49,266 nt of DNA, taken from positions 1 to 49,266 of the IMG/VR virus record IMGVR_UViG_2710723508_000002. One strand, 5' to 3'. The notes under the pieces are model-generated. The model saw nothing but the letters and a program-made list of their open reading frames with translations, was not told the origin of the DNA and searched no databases. Made by a program: the position numbers and the translations under genes. Shown here one piece after another: positions 25,428 to 49,266 of the stretch; positions within the stretch are counted from its first letter, which is position 1, and the number at the start of each line of letters is the position of its first letter. This stretch comes from a virus.

Positions 25428-25727
25428 TTATGCTATGCCGGTGCTATGTACACCACGATTAAGCCGATAATTACTCTTTTCTGTCTGTCCTGGCTCAAGT
25501 ACCAGCATACTGATGCGCTCGCCGGTCTTCATGCCGTAGTGTCTCAGAATCGTTCTGAGAGACTTGGCCGTGTTGCCTTCACGGCCAATAATGGCTCCCA
25601 TATCCTCTTGGTGGACTGAAACAGACAAAAGCACGCCCATTTCGTCTAGGCTGCGTGTGACTTTCACATCATCTTGGTGTTTCACCAGTCCTTTAATTAT
25701 TGATTTCAAAAATTCAGTTGCTTCCAT
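25428..25727 (-). CDS. KH-domain RNA-binding protein (KhpA/YlqC-like, KH_4).
   Basis: LKSIIKGLVKHQDDVKV...LLSVSVHQEDMGAIIGREGNTAKSLRTIL contains the GxxG-type core IGREG and matches the family layout. Confidence 0.7.
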   Translation of the reverse strand: MEATEFLKSIIKGLVKHQDDVKVTRSLDEMGVLLSVSVHQEDMGAIIGREGNTAKSLRTILRHYGMKTGERISMLVLEPGQTEKSNYRLNRGVHSTGIA

Positions 25728-26881: not shown

Positions 26882-27073
26882 ATGAAACAAAGCTTTAAGC
26901 TTCACGAGGCTCAGCAAAAGAAAAGAGAGGACGACTTGGCTGCTTGGATTAAGCAACCTACCTGCTGCGTCTGTCAGCGGAACTGCGAGGGTTACTATGG
27001 CCGTCATGGTGACTCAGGCTCATGTAGCAAAAAATGCGAGGAGAGATACGATGCAAACGCAGGACGTGGTTGA
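26882..27073 (+). CDS. Small Cys-rich (zinc-binding?) protein, first gene of the plus-strand island.
   Basis: Strong SD GGAGGG 6 nt before the ATG. Cysteines fall in CCVCQRNC ... CSKKC. Confidence 0.65.
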   Translation: MKQSFKLHEAQQKKREDDLAAWIKQPTCCVCQRNCEGYYGRHGDSGSCSKKCEERYDANAGRG

Positions 27074-27242
27074 GGCCATGACACGAGCAAAAGTGGATGA
27101 ACAAACATTCTTCCGCCTGGCTCATATCTACTGCTTTGGCAGCGATGCCAATGTCTCTACCGATGTCGCGCAGTTCAAACTGCATGCCATCGTTCCACCT
27201 TTTGTACTTCGGTACGTCAGGGAAAGTAAACAACCTGTCTAG
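27051..27242 (+). CDS. Hypothetical 63-aa protein, second gene of the plus-strand island.
   Basis: ATG at 27051 is preceded by GAGGAGAG. It overlaps the previous gene by 23 nt. The track's longer ORF from 26997 has no comparable RBS. Confidence 0.55.
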   Translation: MQTQDVVEAMTRAKVDEQTFFRLAHIYCFGSDANVSTDVAQFKLHAIVPPFVLRYVRESKQPV

Positions 27243-27251
27243 GAGTACGTC

Positions 27252-27545
27252 ATGAAGTTCTACTTCAAAGTCGCCCTGGTTCTAGTCATCATCTTCATGG
27301 TGGTCAAAGCCTGGGCAGTCCCACCCGAAGTGAAGGCCGAAGTCTTGACTGGGAGCCAACAAGTCCACCAGGGCTTGTGCATCTACCAGGCACAAGAAGT
27401 GAAGTGCCAAATCTTCTACCGCGAGTCGGACGAGACTGTTTACCTGGTCTTGTACACCAACGACACGACTGCCATCACACACGTGGTGAAAGTCAAAGAC
27501 AAAGTGGAGACCATTTTATGGATAAATCCATCCTACTCGATGTAA
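27252..27545 (+). CDS. Secreted small protein with a signal peptide, third gene of the plus-strand island.
   Basis: AGGAG lies 7 nt before the ATG. The N-terminus MKFYFKVALVLVIIFMVVKAWA is followed by a mature region with two Cys. Confidence 0.65.
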   Translation: MKFYFKVALVLVIIFMVVKAWAVPPEVKAEVLTGSQQVHQGLCIYQAQEVKCQIFYRESDETVYLVLYTNDTTAITHVVKVKDKVETILWINPSYSM

Positions 27546-27556
27546 ACCGAGCAATC

Positions 27557-27594
27557 AAAAAACCGCTAGCGTAATGCTGGCGGTTCTTCTTTTG
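27557..27594. terminator. Bidirectional rho-independent terminator where plus and minus transcription converge.
   Basis: AAAAAA-CCGCTAGC-gtaat-GCTGGCGG-TTCTTCTTTT. On the minus strand the stem is followed by TTTTTT. Confidence 0.8.
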
Positions 27595-28015: not shown

Positions 28016-28193
28016 TGGTGCACTGTACGGGACGCTCAACCATTGAGCTTCATGCGTGCACATGGTGGGATTCGAACCCAAAACCTTCCCGCTTGGGCTT
28101 GCTCTACCAACTGAGCTACGAACGGTAACCCCCGCCCGGCTGGATTCGAACCAGCGCGCTCGCCCCGTACAATGCACCACCTACCTCCCACCT
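28016..28193 (-). ncRNA. Structured RNA with two circularly permuted tRNA-like modules closed by a long terminal helix (a tRNA mimic with YrlA/Y-RNA-like topology). It is not a canonical tRNA.
   Basis: The minus strand carries canonical D-arms (GCTCAGTTGGTAGAGC and GCTCAATGGTTGAGC) and T-arms (GCTGGTTCGAATCCAGC and TGGGTTCGAATCCCA). The acceptor and anticodon stem halves pair only in permuted order. Details are given in the finding for this locus. Confidence 0.55.
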
Positions 28194-28198
28194 AAATT

Positions 28199-28227
28199 AT
28201 TATATACCACTTTCTTCTGGACGCTAA
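28199..28227 (-). promoter_or_regulatory. Sigma70-like promoter for the tRNA-mimic RNA.
   Basis: The minus strand reads TTAGCG (28227-28222), a 17-nt spacer, then TATAAT (28204-28199). It sits just after the stop of the upstream CDS. Confidence 0.5.
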
Positions 28228-28234
28228 GGTTTGT

Positions 28235-28663
28235 TCACTGCTTCGCTCCCGAACAATACGGACACTCTACAAACGTAGGTAACCCATGTTCACACTCAGC
28301 CGCTTTGACCGCTACTTGTGGCTTGTAGTCGTCGGTTATAGCCTCAAAGAACTCCTGCAGCCTTCCATCCTTAATCAACCGGGGTACAAAGTTTATATTC
28401 AGGCGATATTTGTAGTACTTACTACCGCTTTTGCTTTTGACCAAGACTCGCTCAAGTAGATCCGGATTCTCTTGAAATATCTCACTGAAACGTGCCGGGG
28501 TCTTCCAGGTGGTAAATACCCATTTGTTTAGTTCTTTTACCAGTACATCTCCAACGTCAACAATGTTTGGTGGGTGGTATTGCTCACGGTTCTTTAAGTG
28601 CTCAGTGAAGAGTATGTAGAACACGGCCATTTCGTGAGTGATTTTTTTGAGGTTTGATTTCAT
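28235..28663 (-). CDS. Hypothetical protein.
   Basis: 142-aa ORF, the last protein gene of the minus-strand transcription series. Confidence 0.6.
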   Translation of the reverse strand: MKSNLKKITHEMAVFYILFTEHLKNREQYHPPNIVDVGDVLVKELNKWVFTTWKTPARFSEIFQENPDLLERVLVKSKSGSKYYKYRLNINFVPRLIKDGRLQEFFEAITDDYKPQVAVKAAECEHGLPTFVECPYCSGAKQ

Positions 28664-42281: not shown

Positions 42282-45200
42282 TTATATACTCTCGTAATAT
42301 GCTTTTGGTACAACTTTCCACTCCGAGTATGCACGTCGTGCAAACTCCTTGTCCCCTTGAATCACTGCGTTTCGATCAGCGTCGTCTTCGGCTTCGGCCA
42401 AAAGTGCTATTTTTTCTCGCTCTTCTGGGGTTGCAAATGAAATACTACGCAATTCTTTTCGAAGTTGGTCACTGAAAAGTGGTGTAGCAATACCAAACAT
42501 AGACATACTTACGTCGTACTTGTCAAGTGCCTGACTTGGTTCTGGCAGTCTTGCGACCACCGCCTTTACCACGTTGTTGTCCTTTCCTTCGAGAGCAGCA
42601 TTGACGATTGGGTCGTCATATCCAAACTTTTGTCGGATAGAAACTTCCTTAATAATCTCAGCTTTTTTGTCTGCTTTGTACTGAGCATCTCCTTCGACGT
42701 AGTCCTTTCCGTACACCTCAATCGCCATCTCGTTTATTTGTTCAGCTGTGATTTCACCATCGCCCTGTATTTGTGATTGCAACATCTCGGTTCGCTTTTC
42801 AGCGTTGGTGCGGTCGTCGTAGGCAATATCAAGATTACGTCCGATACTACCAAGTCCGGCAATATCTGGGGCGGTGAGGAATTGGTGTAATTGCTGAGTT
42901 CCAGGGAAACCAAGCACCATGAGAGTATTTTTAAGCACGTTGTATACCTCCTTGTTACTGGCTCCGTCCTTAAACAGGTTAGTGACATTCTCCGCAATTT
43001 TGTCAATGGCTTCAATACTAGGGTTGTTGATTCGGAGTCCTTCAAGAGAGCCGTCAAATCCAAGAAGGTACCCTGTTCCAGGAACACGTCCGGCAATAGC
43101 AACGAAGTATCGCTTCCACAGAGTTTGATCCTCGTCGTCTTCATAACCAAAGAGTGAGGAGAGCACCATGTACATGATGATTTCGTACGTTACAGCCATG
43201 CCAATATAACTCAAGTTTCCAGCCCCCTTTAGTAAACCTTTACTAGTCCCGTGCTTCTTAAGCTCCATGATGACACCGTCGTAGCGAGCGTTGTTAAAGG
43301 CATTAAAGATGAAAGAACTAAACGGTAAGAAGAATTTGGCGCTAGAGTTATTGAGGATTTGTGGACGATTCGCGACGTTGTGTGAAGACTGAGACAAAAT
43401 CATTATTTGTTCAGACCGGGCAATCGCTTCACTCTCTGACAGCCCTTGCTTCATATAGCCATTCTTCATCACGTTGAATACGGATGTAGCAACACGTATG
43501 TCAACTGTGCGAATACCGATATAGGCATGTTCACGATACTTCTGCCAGCCACGTGCCCAAGCATTTGGAGAGAAGACACCACGATACATACTTTGCATTT
43601 CAGCAATATCAATCTGGCCACCTTGGCGGTTTTGAAGTTCTTTACTACTAGCAACACTGGCATCTAGTTTCGCTTTATTGAGTGCCAAAGAAATAAGCTC
43701 TGGGAAGACTTTTGCTGCAGCTCTCCAGCCAAGCTCTTTGTGAACGTTCATCATTCCGTCAAACGCACCAGAAATCTGCACCAAAACAGTTGAAATTTTG
43801 TAACCAAGAATCGCTAAAGTGACGTTACCGCGCGCCCAGTCCATGATATTTTGCATCCAACTACGCTGACCACGGCCGTTGGTGGCGACGTCAGTAATGT
43901 ACTGACTCCAGTAATCGAGGGTGACTTTGTCAGCCTTGGCCTTGTATTCTTTTGAGTTCACAAGCGCCTTAATACTCTCAAGCTCTGGCTGTACCTTGGC
44001 GTAGAATACCTGCTTCTTTACCTGAGAAACAAACGTTCTGAAAATGTTGGTATCAAGCACACGGCCGACTTGGTTTGTACGTTCCATCGTGAAGCCTTGC
44101 GCAGTCTTCTTCACATCAAAGTCAAATACGTTTTCTTCAATCGTAAACGACTCCACATTTGAGTCGTAACTTAGTGGGAAATAGTTTTCAATATTCGGGA
44201 ATGGTCGGTTATTGATTGCTTCGTAGGTGGCAGCAATCTGGCCGCGAATATCTTTGAACACAGACTGCATGATTTCTAGCGCCGCTGACTCTTTCTCGGA
44301 GAGTGGTGTCGAAAAGTCCACCTTCTTGGCAGGGTCTTTTACCTGAGTGTTGTAGTAATCAACAAGTGCCTCAGCTTGGCTAGTGGCCTCCTGAGCCATT
44401 GCAGACTGATATGTGATACGAACCATCTCGTCGTCAGTAAACGACTCAGCGACCAATTTTAGGTCTTCTAGGGCATCTTTGATAACAAGGTTGGTTTCAA
44501 GTTCAGCTTCGTTAATAGCCTGGCGAACTGGCTCCACTAGCTGTTTATAGTTTTCGCCTTGGTAATCAGCAGCGCCGTCAATATAAGATGCCATACGAGC
44601 TGGGTCGTAGATTTTGGCAGAGGCTTTATCTGTGCCACGTCGCATACGGTTAATGAATGAGTTTGCATCCTTTCCGGGAACTTGTTTGTTGAATTGGTGG
44701 GTACTAGCGACTAGCTTAGAGATATTCTCAGCGAGTGTCTTCTCGTCTCGCGACTTCATCAACTTTTTCTTAAGCACACCCTGGTCATAGATACGTTCTA
44801 CCTCAGCCACAAGCGCAGTGAGTGTGGCGTCGTCTAATTTACCAATTGGTGTACGAGAAAGTCGCTGTAGGTTTTGAGCTACGTTTTCTGGAATTTCCCC
44901 TTCTTGTTTTGCAAAGAATTCAGCTGTCTCAGTCAGTTTCTTTTGAGTAGCGACGCTCATCGACACCAGGTCAATTGTTTCGTAGAGAGCCATCAAACGC
45001 TCTTGGTAATCCAACGGCAAATACGCACCTGTCTTGGTGGCTTTTTTAACCCGGCGGAAAATAGTTTTGAGGGTGTCAATTTTATCCTTACGTTCTCGCT
45101 TGATACGAGTCTCTTGGCGAATCTGTTGACGGCCAGCTACTGAACCGTCACGATAACCACGCTTCTCGCCCATAGTGACGTAGTACTCCTTGCGCATCAA

Positions 45201-48200
45201 AAACTTCTTGCGCATGTTAAGCCGCCGCTGCAAATCTCGCAGCGCTTTGTTGACAGTCTGACCTTGGCGACGTGAGGCAGCAATATCCTTTCTCAAGGTG
45301 CGCAAACGCTTCTTGGTTTCAGCCAATTCAGTCCGGCGTTCTAGGTAATCGTAGAGTTCCTTGGTAGTTACATCTGTCTCTTTCAAAGCGGCCTCTCCGG
45401 CCTTTGTAAGCGTCTTAGGGGGCTTTTTGGTAGTGAAGCGTGCCACTTTACGCACTTCGGTACTTGCTCCCTTCACAACGGTGGCCAGCATACCCTTAGT
45501 CTCCAGCTTCTGCCCGAGTTCGTCCTTCCATAAATCAGCGTCCTTCTCAAGTTGAGCAAGCTGAGTTGATGCTTGGTTGTGCTGGACAATTAGTTTTTGA
45601 GTATAAGCGTCGTCTGTTTCCTTCTTCTTCAATCGAACCTCATTTGGTGTATTGCGTAGATCCAACACACCTTCTTCAATAAACGATTGGACTAGGCCAG
45701 TGTTCTCCAAGAAAACCATTTGCGCGTTTACATCCTCACCAAACTCCAGCAGGTCGTAGTAATCCTTAATGATGTCTGGGTAGCCCTTAATAAAGTTCTT
45801 AAAAGAGCCATACAGCTTCTTAAGCAGCGCGTAGAATTTGCGGATGATGCCCTTGGCCTCGTAGGTATTCTGTCGGTAGGACTCGAAATTTTTAGCCAAA
45901 TCTTCTTCCACCTTTTCAATCTGTTGAGCATTCATTTTATCCAACTCAAAGAAACTCCAGCCAGACTGCATAGCCTGGGCGCGAAGCAGTTTCTCTCTAG
46001 TGATACCGTTCTTGACCATGATTGGAATACGGTGTGCATTCGCTACTGTGAGGTGGACTACCTCATGGCGGTCAGTATTTTCTACCGCGTCTTTTACAAG
46101 AGCAATCGTGTTGTCTGAGTACAAACCAAAAGCCTCAATGTTGTCTTGGTTTTTTGTGATAGCGTTTTCTTTGATACCAGCAAGAATGACGTCGGCATAC
46201 ACCACATCGAACGAAAGGTTCCACCGGTTGCGAATATCACTCAAAAAGGCAGACCGAGTGACGGTTTGCGAGTTTCTTTTGGACTTATTGGCACTGTCAA
46301 ACTTTGCAAAGTCTGAGATAAACTCCCGGCTCTGGTCAGACGAATTGACGTCGTGGCGCAGCTTATACATTGCCTTGCTAGGACTGTCTTCCACCACAAT
46401 GGCTTCAAAGATTTTATCAAAGCCTTCCATGACCATCTTGACCTCTTGCTCTCCGCGAGCGTATGGGTACACTTCTGCCAAGGTTGTATCTACGTCAGCA
46501 TGCTTTCGTAGACCTACAAGTGCGTTGTTTTCAACGCCAGCCTCCTGCATCTTATTGAAGATATACGACTCAAACATACGAGCCGACATTTCAATGTGAG
46601 TAGAAAAGTATGGCTTACTCTTATTTCCATCAGCTTTTTTAGAACGAGTGTACACGTCAGAAATTCCTACATTTAACATCAAATCTCTAAATGCGTTCTC
46701 TACCTCTTTTCGTTGGTACTTTAGTTTGTCCGACACAAAACCATAGACATCGCCATTGCGACGGCCAAGGTAGTTATCAAAAGCGTGCCACCACTCATGT
46801 GCGATTGAACCAATACCACCCTCTTTGGTTAGGTTGATTACAACAAAGTCTGGCTCATAGTGAGCAATTGCTCCCTTGCGGCCGCGAGAACCAAAAGCAA
46901 AACCTAGTTCGCCGTTAAGGGACAATGATTTGTCTGGCACTCCTAGTGTGTTTGCAAGCTCCTTAAACGCATCATACGCGAGGTTAAGACGCTCTTGACG
47001 CTCTTGTTGAGTCACCCAATTACCAAACTCAACACCTTTGAATCCGAAGGTGTTGCGGAAATCCTCAGCACTAATATCTTTGCCGTCTCGGTATGAACGT
47101 GACGATTCTAGTCCGGCTACACGGAAATTGTTTTCATCAAAACTGACTGACTCCGCAATTGACTTTACGTACTCCTGTAGCTTATCCGGGTCTTTGAGAG
47201 CCTCACGCGCTTCGGCAGCAGACGCAAAGACTTCAAATTCAACAAAGCGGCTACCTTTCTTAAAGGCGGTCATGATTTTAGAGCCTTGACGAAATACGCT
47301 TATGTAGTCTGCAAGGTCAAGTTGTTTCTTCCCGGCTTTTTCTTGTGCCATTTCCCCTTCCATCACCGCGTACACCTCTTCTATATTGGTTCCGTAGCTT
47401 TTATGCTGTCCCTGTTGAGTAGTGTAGTTTTTATTAAGTGTCTTGCCGTTCTTTCGCAGACTGTAAAATGTAACCGGTTCAGTATTTTGACTACTACTTG
47501 ACCTGCCCCTTTGAACAAAAACGGTATACTTCTGCACCTCTGGATTGTTCAAGAAATCAAACTTCTTATGAAGGTTGACGGTCGCACCGATACTGCTAGT
47601 CAGTTCTTTTTCTCCGGCTTTTTCTATCACTTCATTTAGCTTCTCAAATACCCCAGTCGCACCTTCGGTATTTTTATTGATTAGCATTTTACCAGCCACG
47701 TCACGCAAGAATTTTACATCTTTAATCCACTTTTCAGTCTTGAGTCGAGCATACCTACCAGTTGGCTTTTTAGGTAGCTCAGCGCGCATTGTAGCGTACA
47801 AAGAGAGTGCGTTTACATCTACACCAGCCTCAGCTAAAGCTGCAAAGTCAACGGATGGTAAAAGCTTTGCGACCGGCTGCGTCATGATGTCTGAGTCAGA
47901 CAAATCTTTGGTGTACTTCTCAGCAAGTGCTGCAAATTTATCTTTGGCAGCGCCTCCGATTTTTTTACCGACATCAACGTTTTTAACTGCAGTGGTATCT
48001 ACTTTTGGTGGGTTCTTTGACTTATCAGCTTTCTTTGCTGGCTTAGTCACTTTGCTTTTCTCCTCTAGAATTACTTTAGCGTCAGCCATTTGAATTTGCT
48101 CTACATCGAACACTACGTACTCATAAATAGTCTGACCGTTCTCATCTTTACCAAACGCAGAAACGATACCGTCAAAGCCAGCGTCAATCATTTTCTGTTT

Positions 48201-49266
48201 ATTCTCAATGTCGCTGTAAAGTCCGTCCTGTAATTCACCTAGAGTACCCAAATCAATCGCGTCATCTAAGTATTCCAATGCTTCTTTAGGGCTAATAGCT
48301 TTTTCACCAGATAGTAATTCGTATACAAATTCAGCTTGAGACTCTTTCGTGAGAATGCCAGCAAGAGTTAAGTCAAGTGGATTTTTAAGACTAAGCTTTG
48401 CTTTCTTTACTTGTGCAGGACGGTTATCGCCTTGTGGTCGGGTGTCTTCTACGAATTGCTTGGCTCGGGCTTCATCACCAATGAAGAACGTACCAAAACT
48501 GGCATTGTCCCATTGTGTGTTTTCGCCTACACGCTTTGCGTCAAACTTATCGAAGTCAGCAAGTGTACCGTGATACACCACGTCAGGAATTACAATAGCG
48601 TCTTCACTTTTTTTTTCAGTGGACGGTGTGTCGCCGTCTTCGTCAGCGTCGTCAGCTTTTTCTCGACGCATTAAATAGCCGTCTTCGTCAACTTGGTACA
48701 ACTGATATGTAGTATTTCCAGCTTTGAGCTTGCCGTCTTTGTCGATACTTTCAATCACCCAACGCTTGCCGTCGAGTTCGATAATCTCACCAACTTTACC
48801 CAAAGGTTTTGAGCTAGGGAGAACACCATAACCGAGTCCAATAAATGAACCCTCGTAGTTGATAGTGTTATTCATCGGGTCAGCCTTCTTAGCGTCGAGG
48901 TCTGTAGCAAGAATCTTGGGGAACTTTGTTGTTTTATCTAGTTCCGCAACTACGTCTGGCTGGTATTTTTCAGCTACATCTTTTGGAATTAACTTGTTTT
49001 TGTACAAAAACTTAATCACTGAAATGTCAGTAAATATAAGAAATTGTTTAGCTTCTTCTATGCCGTATTTTTCTTCTTGATATTCTCGCCACGCTTTTGC
49101 ACCCTCTAGGGTCATACCCTCAGTTTCAGTGTCTTGGTGAAAAAACTCTTTTTCTTTTTTTAGTAACAGTAAATACTGAGAAATTGCAACGTCATAGTCG
49201 TTGTTTGAACGCTTCAAAACTAGCTTAAACTGCTCTGCCAGTGACTTGTTTTTGTTAGTTTCGATA
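42282..49266 (-). CDS. Giant polyvalent protein, C-terminal part (about 2,300 codons). It is open to the right window edge, and 49177-49266 duplicates 1-90.
   Basis: The track ORF 42282-49217 begins at an internal TTG. The frame stays open upstream to base 49266 and is continuous with 1-3143 after the 90-bp overlap is removed. The combined ORF is 10,038 nt, encoding 3,345 aa. Confidence 0.9.
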   Translation of the reverse strand, partial: IETNKNKSLAEQFKLVLKRSNNDYDVAISQYLLLLKKEKEFFHQDTETEGMTLEGAKAWREYQEEKYGIEEAKQFLIFTDISVIKFLYKNKLIPKDVAEKYQPDVVAELDKTTKFPKILATDLDAKKADPMNNTINYEGSFIGLGYGVLPSSKPLGKVGEIIELDGKRWVIESIDKDGKLKAGNTTYQLYQVDEDGYLMRREKADDADEDGDTPSTEKKSEDAIVIPDVVYHGTLADFDKFDAKRVGENTQWDNASFGTFFIGDEARAKQFVEDTRPQGDNRPAQVKKAKLSLKNPLDLTLAGILTKESQAEFVYELLSGEKAISPKEALEYLDDAIDLGTLGELQDGLYSDIENKQKMIDAGFDGIVSAFGKDENGQTIYEYVVFDVEQIQMADAKVILEEKSKVTKPAKKADKSKNPPKVDTTAVKNVDVGKKIGGAAKDKFAALAEKYTKDLSDSDIMTQPVAKLLPSVDFAALAEAGVDVNALSLYATMRAELPKKPTGRYARLKTEKWIKDVKFLRDVAGKMLINKNTEGATGVFEKLNEVIEKAGEKELTSSIGATVNLHKKFDFLNNPEVQKYTVFVQRGRSSSSQNTEPVTFYSLRKNGKTLNKNYTTQQGQHKSYGTNIEEVYAVMEGEMAQEKAGKKQLDLADYISVFRQGSKIMTAFKKGSRFVEFEVFASAAEAREALKDPDKLQEYVKSIAESVSFDENNFRVAGLESSRSYRDGKDISAEDFRNTFGFKGVEFGNWVTQQERQERLNLAYDAFKELANTLGVPDKSLSLNGELGFAFGSRGRKGAIAHYEPDFVVINLTKEGGIGSIAHEWWHAFDNYLGRRNGDVYGFVSDKLKYQRKEVENAFRDLMLNVGISDVYTRSKKADGNKSKPYFSTHIEMSARMFESYIFNKMQEAGVENNALVGLRKHADVDTTLAEVYPYARGEQEVKMVMEGFDKIFEAIVVEDSPSKAMYKLRHDVNSSDQSREFISDFAKFDSANKSKRNSQTVTRSAFLSDIRNRWNLSFDVVYADVILAGIKENAITKNQDNIEAFGLYSDNTIALVKDAVENTDRHEVVHLTVANAHRIPIMVKNGITREKLLRAQAMQSGWSFFELDKMNAQQIEKVEEDLAKNFESYRQNTYEAKGIIRKFYALLKKLYGSFKNFIKGYPDIIKDYYDLLEFGEDVNAQMVFLENTGLVQSFIEEGVLDLRNTPNEVRLKKKETDDAYTQKLIVQHNQASTQLAQLEKDADLWKDELGQKLETKGMLATVVKGASTEVRKVARFTTKKPPKTLTKAGEAALKETDVTTKELYDYLERRTELAETKKRLRTLRKDIAASRRQGQTVNKALRDLQRRLNMRKKFLMRKEYYVTMGEKRGYRDGSVAGRQQIRQETRIKRERKDKIDTLKTIFRRVKKATKTGAYLPLDYQERLMALYETIDLVSMSVATQKKLTETAEFFAKQEGEIPENVAQNLQRLSRTPIGKLDDATLTALVAEVERIYDQGVLKKKLMKSRDEKTLAENISKLVASTHQFNKQVPGKDANSFINRMRRGTDKASAKIYDPARMASYIDGAADYQGENYKQLVEPVRQAINEAELETNLVIKDALEDLKLVAESFTDDEMVRITYQSAMAQEATSQAEALVDYYNTQVKDPAKKVDFSTPLSEKESAALEIMQSVFKDIRGQIAATYEAINNRPFPNIENYFPLSYDSNVESFTIEENVFDFDVKKTAQGFTMERTNQVGRVLDTNIFRTFVSQVKKQVFYAKVQPELESIKALVNSKEYKAKADKVTLDYWSQYITDVATNGRGQRSWMQNIMDWARGNVTLAILGYKISTVLVQISGAFDGMMNVHKELGWRAAAKVFPELISLALNKAKLDASVASSKELQNRQGGQIDIAEMQSMYRGVFSPNAWARGWQKYREHAYIGIRTVDIRVATSVFNVMKNGYMKQGLSESEAIARSEQIMILSQSSHNVANRPQILNNSSAKFFLPFSSFIFNAFNNARYDGVIMELKKHGTSKGLLKGAGNLSYIGMAVTYEIIMYMVLSSLFGYEDDEDQTLWKRYFVAIAGRVPGTGYLLGFDGSLEGLRINNPSIEAIDKIAENVTNLFKDGASNKEVYNVLKNTLMVLGFPGTQQLHQFLTAPDIAGLGSIGRNLDIAYDDRTNAEKRTEMLQSQIQGDGEITAEQINEMAIEVYGKDYVEGDAQYKADKKAEIIKEVSIRQKFGYDDPIVNAALEGKDNNVVKAVVARLPEPSQALDKYDVSMSMFGIATPLFSDQLRKELRSISFATPEEREKIALLAEAEDDADRNAVIQGDKEFARRAYSEWKVVPKAYYESI
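46548..47075 (-). other. Zincin-like metallopeptidase domain (MPTase-PolyVal type) in the giant ORF.
   Basis: FGFKGVEFGNWVTQQERQ ... AFGSRGRKGAIAHYEP..VINLTKEGGIGSIAHEWWHAFDNYL. The HExxH motif is at nt 46799-46785. Confidence 0.65.
48084..48596 (-). other. ART-like (ADP-ribosyltransferase of polyvalent proteins type) domain in the giant ORF.
   Basis: IPDVVYHGTLADFDKFD ... SFGTFFIGDEARAKQF ... GFDGIVSAF ... YEYVVFDVEQIQ. This matches my recollection of the H-Y-E ART-PolyVal pattern. No search was run. Confidence 0.5.
49177..49266. repeat. Terminal direct repeat copy B, identical to 1-90.
   Basis: Direct comparison of the window ends. Confidence 0.97.

Follow-up and report, generated by a model that had tools for sequence, protein, structure and literature searches.

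The viral record IMGVR_UViG_2710723508_000002 of IMG/VR, which we analyzed over its whole length of 49,266 nucleotides (the window), carries on its minus strand, at 28016–28227, what we predict to be a stand-alone gene for a noncoding RNA of ~165–180 nt. A preliminary description, made from the letters alone, had read this element as two circularly permuted tRNA-like modules on one long helix. Comparison with homologs from other phages shows what we predict to be a three-way junction—a long outer helix bearing two circularly permuted tRNA-like domains of the YrlA type—and the RNA is accessory and horizontally mobile among phages. What would a phage do with two tRNA bodies and no anticodon? We consider it probable, if far from settled, that this accessory and mobile RNA, a variant of the YrlA kind, engages a host factor in trans as a twin mimic of the tRNA body.

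Architecture of the RNA

Along the minus strand of 28016–28181, each of the pieces named in the preliminary description is present. The RNA consists of two modules, each running from a T-arm through a capped “acceptor” hairpin to a D-arm and sealed by a stem of 4–5 bp, and both modules are enclosed by a 12-bp outer helix (P1), extendable up to 18–19 bp, that is a near-perfect duplex with no bulge. The parts, in the order of transcription, are these.

28222–28227, minus: possible −35 element TTAGCG (three of six matches to TTGACA), as read from the sequence
28199–28204, minus: possible −10 element TATAAT, 17 nt after the −35, as read from the sequence
28182–28193, minus: putative 5′ leader, the transcription start being placed from the position of the −10
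28168–28181, minus: outer helix P1, 5′ strand, with core UGGUGCAUUGUA at 28168–28179 (inverted repeat, covariation)
28095–28165, minus: Module Y (local match to Rfam YrlA, helix covariation, G15:C48 within the module)
28162–28165 and 28095–28098, minus: Module Y closing stem, GGGC/GCCC
28156–28161, minus: Module Y variable region
28139–28155, minus: Module Y T-arm, GCUGG-UUCGAAU-CCAGC
28119–28138, minus: Module Y capped acceptor-like hairpin, 7 bp including 2 G-U, loop GGGUUA; then UA
28101–28116, minus: Module Y D-arm, GCUC-AGUUGGUA-GAGC
28092–28094, minus: AAG linker between the modules (the same AAG in phage BAjuniper; 2–3 nt in homologs)
28028–28091, minus: Module Z (local match to Rfam YrlA, covariation, A15:U48 within the module)
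28087–28091 and 28028–28032, minus: Module Z closing stem, CGGGA/UCCCG
28082–28086, minus: Module Z variable region, AGGUU
28065–28081, minus: Module Z T-arm
28051–28064, minus: Module Z hairpin, 5-bp stem CAUGU/GCAUG, tetraloop GCAC; then AA
28034–28048, minus: Module Z D-arm, GCUC-AAUGGUU-GAGC
28016–28027, minus: outer helix P1, 3′ strand UACAGUGCACCA, terminal ACCA paired with UGGU (inverted repeat, covariation)

The two T-loop cores are exact copies of GGTTCGAATCC at 28142–28152 and 28068–28078, spaced 74 nt apart, and they are the sole exact copies in the 49 kb (with one mismatch allowed, the window holds 3 matches vs. 0.68 expected). Both D-arms are canonical, of the form GCUC-A..GG..-GAGC, and the variable regions are 5–6 single-stranded nucleotides with no V stem-loop. 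The outer helix arises from an inverted repeat of 19 nt (28016–28034 with 28161–28179; 89% complementary), whose imperfections both become G-U pairs on the minus-strand RNA and do so on that strand only. This strand bias had been the initial ground for a minus-strand structure, and the homologs and their covariation agree with it. Folding of the region, one of the checks proposed at the outset, gives an energy far better than that of shuffled sequences (z = −5.05).

Some details of the preliminary description need amendment. It had drawn the acceptor of Module Z as CATGTGC-A-CGCATG, and because a loop of 1 nt is impossible, we replace this with the 5-bp stem and GCAC loop listed above. It had also seen in the closing helix a 7-bp acceptor stem followed by a discriminator A and an encoded CCA; this must be given up, with the ACCA being paired and the homologous RNAs ending instead in CAUCAC, AAUCAC, and CCCCAA.

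Two observations on the outer helix and its approach stand apart from the fold. The string TAGGTGG occurs twice, 11 nt apart (28189–28195 and 28178–28184), before and at the start of the helix (AGGTGGGAGGTAGGTGGTG). The homologs have a single copy, preceded directly by an A/T-rich stretch, so the leader in the window has the appearance of having undergone a short duplication. The helix next to the junction (28168–28172 with 28023–28027; alignment columns 11–15 with 168–172) keeps its sequence, U-G-N-A facing U-N-C-A, even as most members have a wobble or mismatch at two of its positions (one position reads U·G, U·G, C-G, and A·G; at the other, two members have a mismatched A·C), and the distal part varies freely with compensation. 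From this pattern in the alignment, the conserved part near the junction may be a site of protein contact.

A Family of Twin-Module RNAs

Pattern scans of IMG/VR returned mostly tandem tRNAs, together with three viral contigs (L078, L261, and L264) of the same architecture, in each of which a long outer helix bears the two modules, as the preliminary description had it for the window. At the protein level, the three are similar neither to the window nor to each other, and the RNA is the only part that they share; its neighbors are terminase and portal genes in L261 and primase and ERF genes in L264. A covariance model built from the four long-helix RNAs (R1) scores these members at 169–185 bits (the window at 178) and finds, at 75–105 bits, twin modules without the outer helix in about ten further viral contigs, for fifteen distinct loci at 75–185 bits in all. 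Among the RNAs that it finds is one in the cultured Microbacterium phage BAjuniper.

The BAjuniper twin module (OQ938582.1, 41280–41430; L278 2955–3105) is unannotated and occupies precisely the space that separates tRNA-Pro(agg) from tRNA-Asn; the tRNA-Pro annotated there is unusually long, at 90 nt. In L056, a twin module lies between tRNA-Lys and tRNA-Trp and is abutted by them on both sides. These and the other twin modules in phage tRNA arrays (L041, L255, L258, and others of IMG/VR) have the same modules, linker, and closing stems as the RNA in the window; unlike it, they have no long outer helix, and they are unannotated. Because the tRNA genes directly abut the elements of BAjuniper and L056, the ends of those elements probably come from tRNA processing. 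Across the homologs, the acceptor-like hairpin ranges from 5 to 8 bp, with the elbow and the D side constant. The window has the marks of the twin-module family—two closed T-hairpin-D modules, a linker of 2–3 nt, and covarying closing stems.

Covariation, a Tertiary Pair, and a Competing Fold

In a MAFFT alignment of the four long-helix RNAs, 95.3% of the cells of the proposed helices are paired and 19 of 54 pairs have changed on both sides; none of 500 shuffles does as well, and slid controls pair at 28–46%. Over fourteen twin-module RNAs, the figures are 95.4% and 37 of 53 (0/500 shuffles as good; slid controls at 33–44%), counts that lean toward the structure in that this second alignment was itself fitted to the model. 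Taken helix by helix, both closing stems pair at 98–100% over the fourteen RNAs, with seven of eight pairs covarying; each of the two acceptor-like hairpins has compensatory changes at six of seven pairs; and the outer helix, in its four homologs, has them at 6 of 13 (92% of cells paired). The D stems do not vary, and in the T stems it is the outer pairs that covary, in both alignments. Compensatory changes are thus present in every variable helix, which is the outcome that the preliminary description had set as a test of its permuted helices.

Tertiary structure can be read in the same way. In every one of the 28 modules, nucleotide 15 in the D-loop is matched as G:C or A:U to that module's own nucleotide 48, where the variable region ends; the window has one of each (G:C in Module Y and A:U in Module Z). 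With the covariation and the Rfam matches described below, this pair bears out the permuted order of variable region, T-arm, capped hairpin, and D-arm.

Might the two modules not close on themselves at all? The functional fold could instead be the outer helix extended to 18–19 bp by pairing the 5′ closing strand of Y with the 3′ closing strand of Z, with the domains swapped so that the D-arm of Y meets the T-arm of Z, or the RNA could switch between folds. By nearest-neighbor energies, the extended fold is 11–13 kcal/mol more stable in the four long-helix members and comes near the unconstrained minimum free energy fold; all four preserve the complementarity, which at two positions has survived changes to both strands; and the Rfam tRNA model scores D(Y)+T(Z) at 28.0 bits in the window and 32.9 in L078. 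Among these four RNAs, covariation alone does not tell one fold from the other. It is the wider family and the 15:48 pair that lead us to prefer closed modules: over the fourteen RNAs, the extension is paired in only 53% of cells, equal to its slid controls, and in the RNAs whose modules differ enough to be informative (window, L078, L094, and L239), the partner of nucleotide 15 lies in its own module in four of four and never in the neighboring one. Because the partner always lies within its own module, two separately folded L-shapes are favored. The energy rules, moreover, ignore tRNA tertiary contacts, and the acceptor of D(Y)+T(Z) is unpaired in the window, and so we regard the extended or switching fold as very unlikely to be the functional one.

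Is the element a functional RNA at all? Phage attachment sites often include the 3′ halves of tRNAs, and the element could be debris of this origin or the decayed remains of tandem tRNA genes. Tandem tRNAs can mimic the T-to-D order (PMC4201824), and most of the matches in our pattern scans were of that kind. Debris, however, would not be expected to show compensatory changes in every variable helix, a covarying tertiary pair, and an architecture conserved in unrelated phages, nor hairpins that are capped instead of two acceptor halves, nor G-U pairs on one strand only. We give this explanation next to no credence; an origin as attachment site or pseudogene was rejected as strongly disfavored by covariation and cross-phage conservation.

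Not a tRNA, Not Quite YrlA

No Rfam family matches the locus at curated thresholds. With thresholds relaxed, the only meaningful matches are two local ones to YrlA (RF02553), one for each module (Module Z, 30.3 bits; Module Y, 28.7 bits; E values of 1e-4 and 3e-4 in a search of 451 nt; cut-off 69), and one subthreshold match to tRNA. The YrlA matches, which support the likeness to YrlA proposed earlier, are limited to the tRNA-like core (model positions 23–85 and 30–81); positions 1–22 and 86–114, the Ro-binding stem, have no alignment in the window RNA.

ARAGORN finds neither a tRNA nor a tmRNA at the locus, and elsewhere in the window it finds only tRNA-Tyr and tRNA-Met, near 40.0–40.3 kb; the preliminary statement that no linear tRNA can be folded here therefore survives. 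The subthreshold match, a linear tRNA combining Y's D-arm with Z's T-arm, was rejected: it scores 28.0 bits against RF00005 (cut-off 29), has 13 nt where the anticodon arm should take up 17, and has five of seven acceptor pairs broken, leaving its acceptor unpaired. The tmRNA and permuted tmRNA models (RF00023 and RF04321) fall short of the cut-off of 47, at 5.3 and 11.5 bits (E above 3), and we dismissed a permuted tmRNA as noise (11.5 bits, E 3.6).

Permuted tRNA genes do exist. In Cyanidioschyzon merolae, as in permuted tmRNA, the 3′ half (the T side) precedes the 5′ half (the D side), and processing yields aminoacylatable molecules with an anticodon loop or a tag reading frame. The RNA in the window differs in that its acceptor is capped by a loop and in that it has no anticodon loop. 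In tmRNA, the tRNA-like structures at the 3′ ends of plant virus RNAs, and mascRNA, it is the T-arm/acceptor or elbow shape that recruits tRNA-binding proteins, and these RNAs have a free, CCA-bearing acceptor that makes them substrates of RNase P, the CCA-adding enzyme, or aminoacyl-tRNA synthetases. The window RNA offers no such free end, and its terminal ACCA is both paired and unconserved.

The closest known relatives are the YrlA RNAs (Chen et al. 2014; PMC4201824), which have the same permuted order of variable region, T-arm, capped hairpin, and D-arm, near-invariant T and D arms, and a tRNA-like domain closed by a stem of ~4 bp that leads to a helix of both RNA ends. Both modules of the window RNA show the near-invariant T and then D stem-loops, the variable acceptor-like stem-loop between them, and the covarying Levitt pair (G15:C48 or A15:U48) reported for YrlA by Chen et al. 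(PMC4201824). Unlike YrlA, which has one such domain, the window RNA has two, and it has no V stem-loop, no bulged Ro-binding stem, and no GNCGAAN0-1G motif. The motif, found near the 5′ end of YrlA (model positions 3–10), is its presumed contact with Ro60/Rsr (PMC4201824). The nearest string in the window RNA, GGCGAGCG, adjoins the T-stem and is not conserved across the twin-module RNAs; it is only closing stem plus a variable region of the GAGGUC type, and a Ro-binding motif in the stem was rejected, GNCGAA not being present. The Rfam gathering score of 69 bits, which neither module reaches, is a weak criterion for phages because a bona fide phage YrlA fails it too: that of Mycobacterium phage Kingsolomon, a single module with a 4-bp closing stem lying just downstream of a gene for a “Ro-like RNA binding protein,” scores 37.9 bits.

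A Ro60 (TROVE) ortholog, which in YrlA loci would lie within ~4 kb on the same strand, is absent from the window by our searches. TROVE, DUF2828, and DUF7788 were found by Pfam in none of 30 open reading frames (ORFs) of the window (among them every ORF of at least 335 aa bar the terminase, which was identified by PHROGs), and tblastn with two phage Ro-like proteins gave nothing significant in the window (best E 0.33), in agreement with the preliminary remark that no Ro gene was visible. By tblastn, Ro-like proteins are likewise absent from the complete BAjuniper genome and from the examined DNA of every twin-module locus. For comparison, homologs of Ro-like proteins occur in 709 of 50,697 phage records.

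Because both the Ro motif and the Ro neighborhood were tested for and neither was found, the RNA falls outside the curated YrlA family, and it is best filed as an RNA resembling the YrlA/Y RNA kind but doubled and without a Ro gene.

Could it nonetheless be an ordinary Y RNA, one that binds the Ro60/Rsr ring of the host and uses its tRNA-like domains to link that ring to PNPase or some other nuclease, remodeling host RNA decay during infection? Such a tethering role has been proposed for YrlA/Yrn1 and for Thermus phage phiLo (PMC4201824, PMC12135203). The core does match Rfam YrlA; the general layout is shared, in that the two RNA ends form a stem and 4 bp close the tRNA-like domain; and phage Ro-like proteins with adjacent YrlA-like RNAs are common, as in Kingsolomon and EfV12-phi1. 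The part of the model that binds Ro, however, is left unaligned (the matches cover only positions 23–85), the motif is missing, the outer helix is a duplex with no bulge, and no Ro-like gene was found in the window or in the twin-module DNA examined, the complete BAjuniper genome included. On balance, an ordinary Y RNA role seems unlikely to us.

The Herelleviridae offer the nearest comparison for repeated modules. In Enterococcus phage EfV12-phi1 (MH880817.1, ~44950–45670; L277 2000–2720, plus strand), a tRNA cluster is followed by an unannotated gap of ~750 nt containing four units, repeated in tandem, with the scaffold …GGTTTTGRC…CATAAAGAA…ACAGCRA…TTCTTG…, of which two contain YrlA-type modules (45.2 and 34.3 bits against Rfam YrlA). 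Arrays of this sort share with the twin RNA the T-hairpin-D modules and a 4-bp closing stem inside a longer helix. They differ in having one module per unit, within a conserved scaffold of ~130–170 nt repeated four times, and in having a Ro-like protein gene immediately downstream; in EfV12-phi1, the protein that follows (510 aa, DUF2828+DUF7788/vWA) is 34% identical to the Ro-like protein of mycobacteriophage Kingsolomon. The EfV12-phi1 module is matched in 22 Enterococcus phage records. Y RNAs were proposed in 2025 in Listeria phage CKA15, of the same family as EfV12-phi1, and the YrlA-type units next to a Ro-like gene in EfV12-phi1 match that proposal (PMC12282133). Our search of the literature found no paper describing doubled or Ro-less YrlA-like RNAs.

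Other tRNA-like oddities turned up along the way. Partial matches to the twin module lie under features annotated as tRNA-Met and tRNA-Arg in Mycobacterium phages Typha and Nadezda. Chains of T-arms, capped hairpins, and D-arms, with three or more modules and irregular connectors, occur in L047 (160–560), L019 (7528–7830), L229 (8460–8700), and L260 (5400–5560, reverse complement), which suggests that some phage contigs have multi-elbow RNAs beyond the twin form. Many viral contigs (for instance, the IMG/VR loci L125, L150, L160, and L124 and the metagenome loci L243 and L244) carry tRNA-like genes with normal acceptor, D, and T arms and a shortened anticodon arm (a 4-bp stem and a loop of 4–7 nt, e.g., GCCAC-ACUUCC-GUGG), often followed by a second similar unit; these genes swamped one of the pattern scans.

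Genomic Setting and Mobility

All of the long ORFs of the window are on the minus strand. They encode a large terminase (PHROGs), a tail-collar protein (Pfam), an ERF recombinase, a YqaJ exonuclease, a C5 methylase, and a KhpA-like KH protein (25428–25727), and by this gene content the window is a phage. A polyvalent protein of 2311 aa (42282–49217, minus strand) contains ART-PolyVal (ADP-ribosyltransferase), LPD1, and LPD5 domains; polyvalent proteins of the ART-PolyVal type are typical of mobile elements that inject antidefense proteins.

The RNA begins 40 nt after the stop of an ORF of 142 aa (28235–28663), and the TATAAT of the putative promoter comes directly after that stop codon. On its other side lies a plus-strand cassette (26997–27545) of two ORFs, 81 and 97 aa, without PHROG matches, which is convergent on the RNA gene and ends in a strong, terminator-like hairpin at 27561–27585. 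PHROGs gave no annotation for ten ORFs neighboring the RNA. Identical copies of the locus are found in contigs from other samples, one labeled as a groundwater metagenome, and the National Center for Biotechnology Information files the protein of 28235–28663 under a Candidatus Kaiserbacteria bin (Candidate Phyla Radiation, CPR) from Rifle groundwater. The contig with that bin label is a phage genome that no cellular genes flank; either the binning is wrong or the phage infects a CPR host.

A promoter upstream of the RNA is plausible, judging by its letters, although a consensus promoter scanner did not call one there (the −10 is perfect and the −35 weak). The homologs have A/T-rich, −10-like strings just upstream of the helix, at differing distances, and neither a reading of the sequence nor a terminator scan found an intrinsic terminator after the RNA. 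Because the scanner missed the promoter, the spacing varies, and no terminator follows, we infer both the expression of the RNA and the formation of its ends.

The element is accessory. Phage relatives with 55–72% identity in the flanking protein do not have it. One of them, L251, keeps the flanking genes, including the KH gene, and has between them a 262-nt spacer without tRNA-like motifs; because both the RNA and the plus-strand cassette are absent from it, the two together look like an insertion at this junction. The same relative undoes the proposed link to the KH protein, since it has the KH gene but not the RNA, and at the other RNA loci the DNA examined contains no KH gene. At the same site, another relative, L254, has a different RNA, a long helix around a tRNA-like fold in normal order (Logan contig SRR20217181_5162874, 515–640, plus strand, after a homolog of the 142-aa gene). 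Its helix is of 12–13 bp (GUACUAUCCUGG/CCAGGAUAGUGC), its T-arm is GUCAG-UUCAACU-CUGAC, and it matches no Rfam family at E ≤1. It seems that tRNA-like RNAs accumulate at the intergenic site behind the 142-aa gene.

Searches by other routes were less productive. Megablast of the locus against GenBank phages gave no match; the upstream 142-aa protein led to no relatives in IMG/VR; the terminase has three relatives, on short contigs that do not reach the locus; and look-ups of exact proteins returned identical copies only. A single pattern scan of metagenomes found no homologs, only tRNA-like genes with shortened anticodon arms, and a scan of GTDB genomes with a subfamily pattern found only tRNAs or chance matches.

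The position of the element also invites a simpler idea, that it is a cis-acting part of the upstream operon—a tRNA-like signal for processing or stability, whether as “punctuation” for RNase P or RNase III or as a block to 3′ exonucleases. It begins 40 nt past a stop codon, at the site where minus-strand transcription meets the convergent plus-strand cassette; its promoter is only putative, with no intrinsic terminator after it; and other phages carry the element between gene modules near terminase or portal genes. Yet the exact twin architecture and its tertiary covariation are kept in unrelated phages, beyond what a processing hairpin would need; in tRNA arrays, the element stands as a separate, gene-like unit; and close relatives have the same junction without it. 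We find a cis-acting role quite unlikely.

Discussion

How, then, might such an RNA work? We picture the minus-strand transcript as predicted above, with the T-arm of each domain stacking on the loop-capped “acceptor” hairpin and the D-arm stacking on the 4–5 bp stem that would stand in for the anticodon arm. With its D- and T-loops and its 15:48 tertiary pair preserved, each domain should take the L-shape of tRNA. The RNA lacks both an anticodon loop and a free acceptor end and so can be neither decoded nor aminoacylated. It would present the body of tRNA (the elbow and the D/anticodon-stem side) twice over, and as a bivalent mimic acting in trans, it would sequester or redirect a host factor that recognizes tRNA shape. 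The hairpins vary from 5 to 8 bp and the elbow and D side are constant, so the conserved surface would be the elbow and not the acceptor length read by RNase P or the CCA-adding enzyme.

The most likely partner would be a tRNA-directed defense or toxin enzyme or a factor of RNA processing or decay, and a Ro protein encoded by the phage would not be needed. By sequence, the candidates may be listed more broadly as host Ro60, a tRNA-directed defense enzyme, a processing enzyme, or the ribosome. The outer helix we would regard as an adaptation to stand-alone expression, sealing both ends of the RNA; in the tRNA arrays, processing of the flanking tRNAs would probably release the unit and serve in place of that seal.

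Several points stand against this picture of a trans-acting tRNA-body mimic. We found no conserved gene near the twin-module RNAs that hints at a function. The host may encode Ro60, in which case the role of an ordinary Y RNA would apply. The putative promoter is only a match to consensus, with a spacing not conserved in the homologs. To these must be added the points about the fold raised above: the calculated energies of the four long-helix members prefer the extended helix, covariation in those four does not by itself choose between the folds, and the fourteen-RNA counts have their lean.

A further thought, about which we are doubtful but which we cannot resist offering, is that these RNAs form a Ro-independent “twin tRNA” class of their own. 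With two inert tRNA bodies held alongside each other and only a few nucleotides between the ends of their anticodon stems, such an RNA could serve as an antidefense sponge, binding with avidity a dimeric defense nuclease or toxin that targets tRNA, or could occupy two neighboring tRNA sites of the ribosome, and the extended fold could make it a switch.

Y RNA-like tRNA mimics have so far been catalogued only beside Ro60 genes because that is how the searches were made. What is new here is a doubled version with strong covariation support, its movement between unrelated phages, and its occurrence in phages in which no Ro-like gene was found, including BAjuniper, which is cultured and genetically tractable. 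Because the RNA is doubled, is mobile, and occurs where no Ro gene was found, the tRNA-like domain is suggested to have a function of its own, a question that has been open since 2014. For genome annotation, the element supplies a concrete model of something that tRNA finders overlook or label wrongly, and in the conflict of phages with host defenses that target tRNA, it is one more candidate RNA participant.

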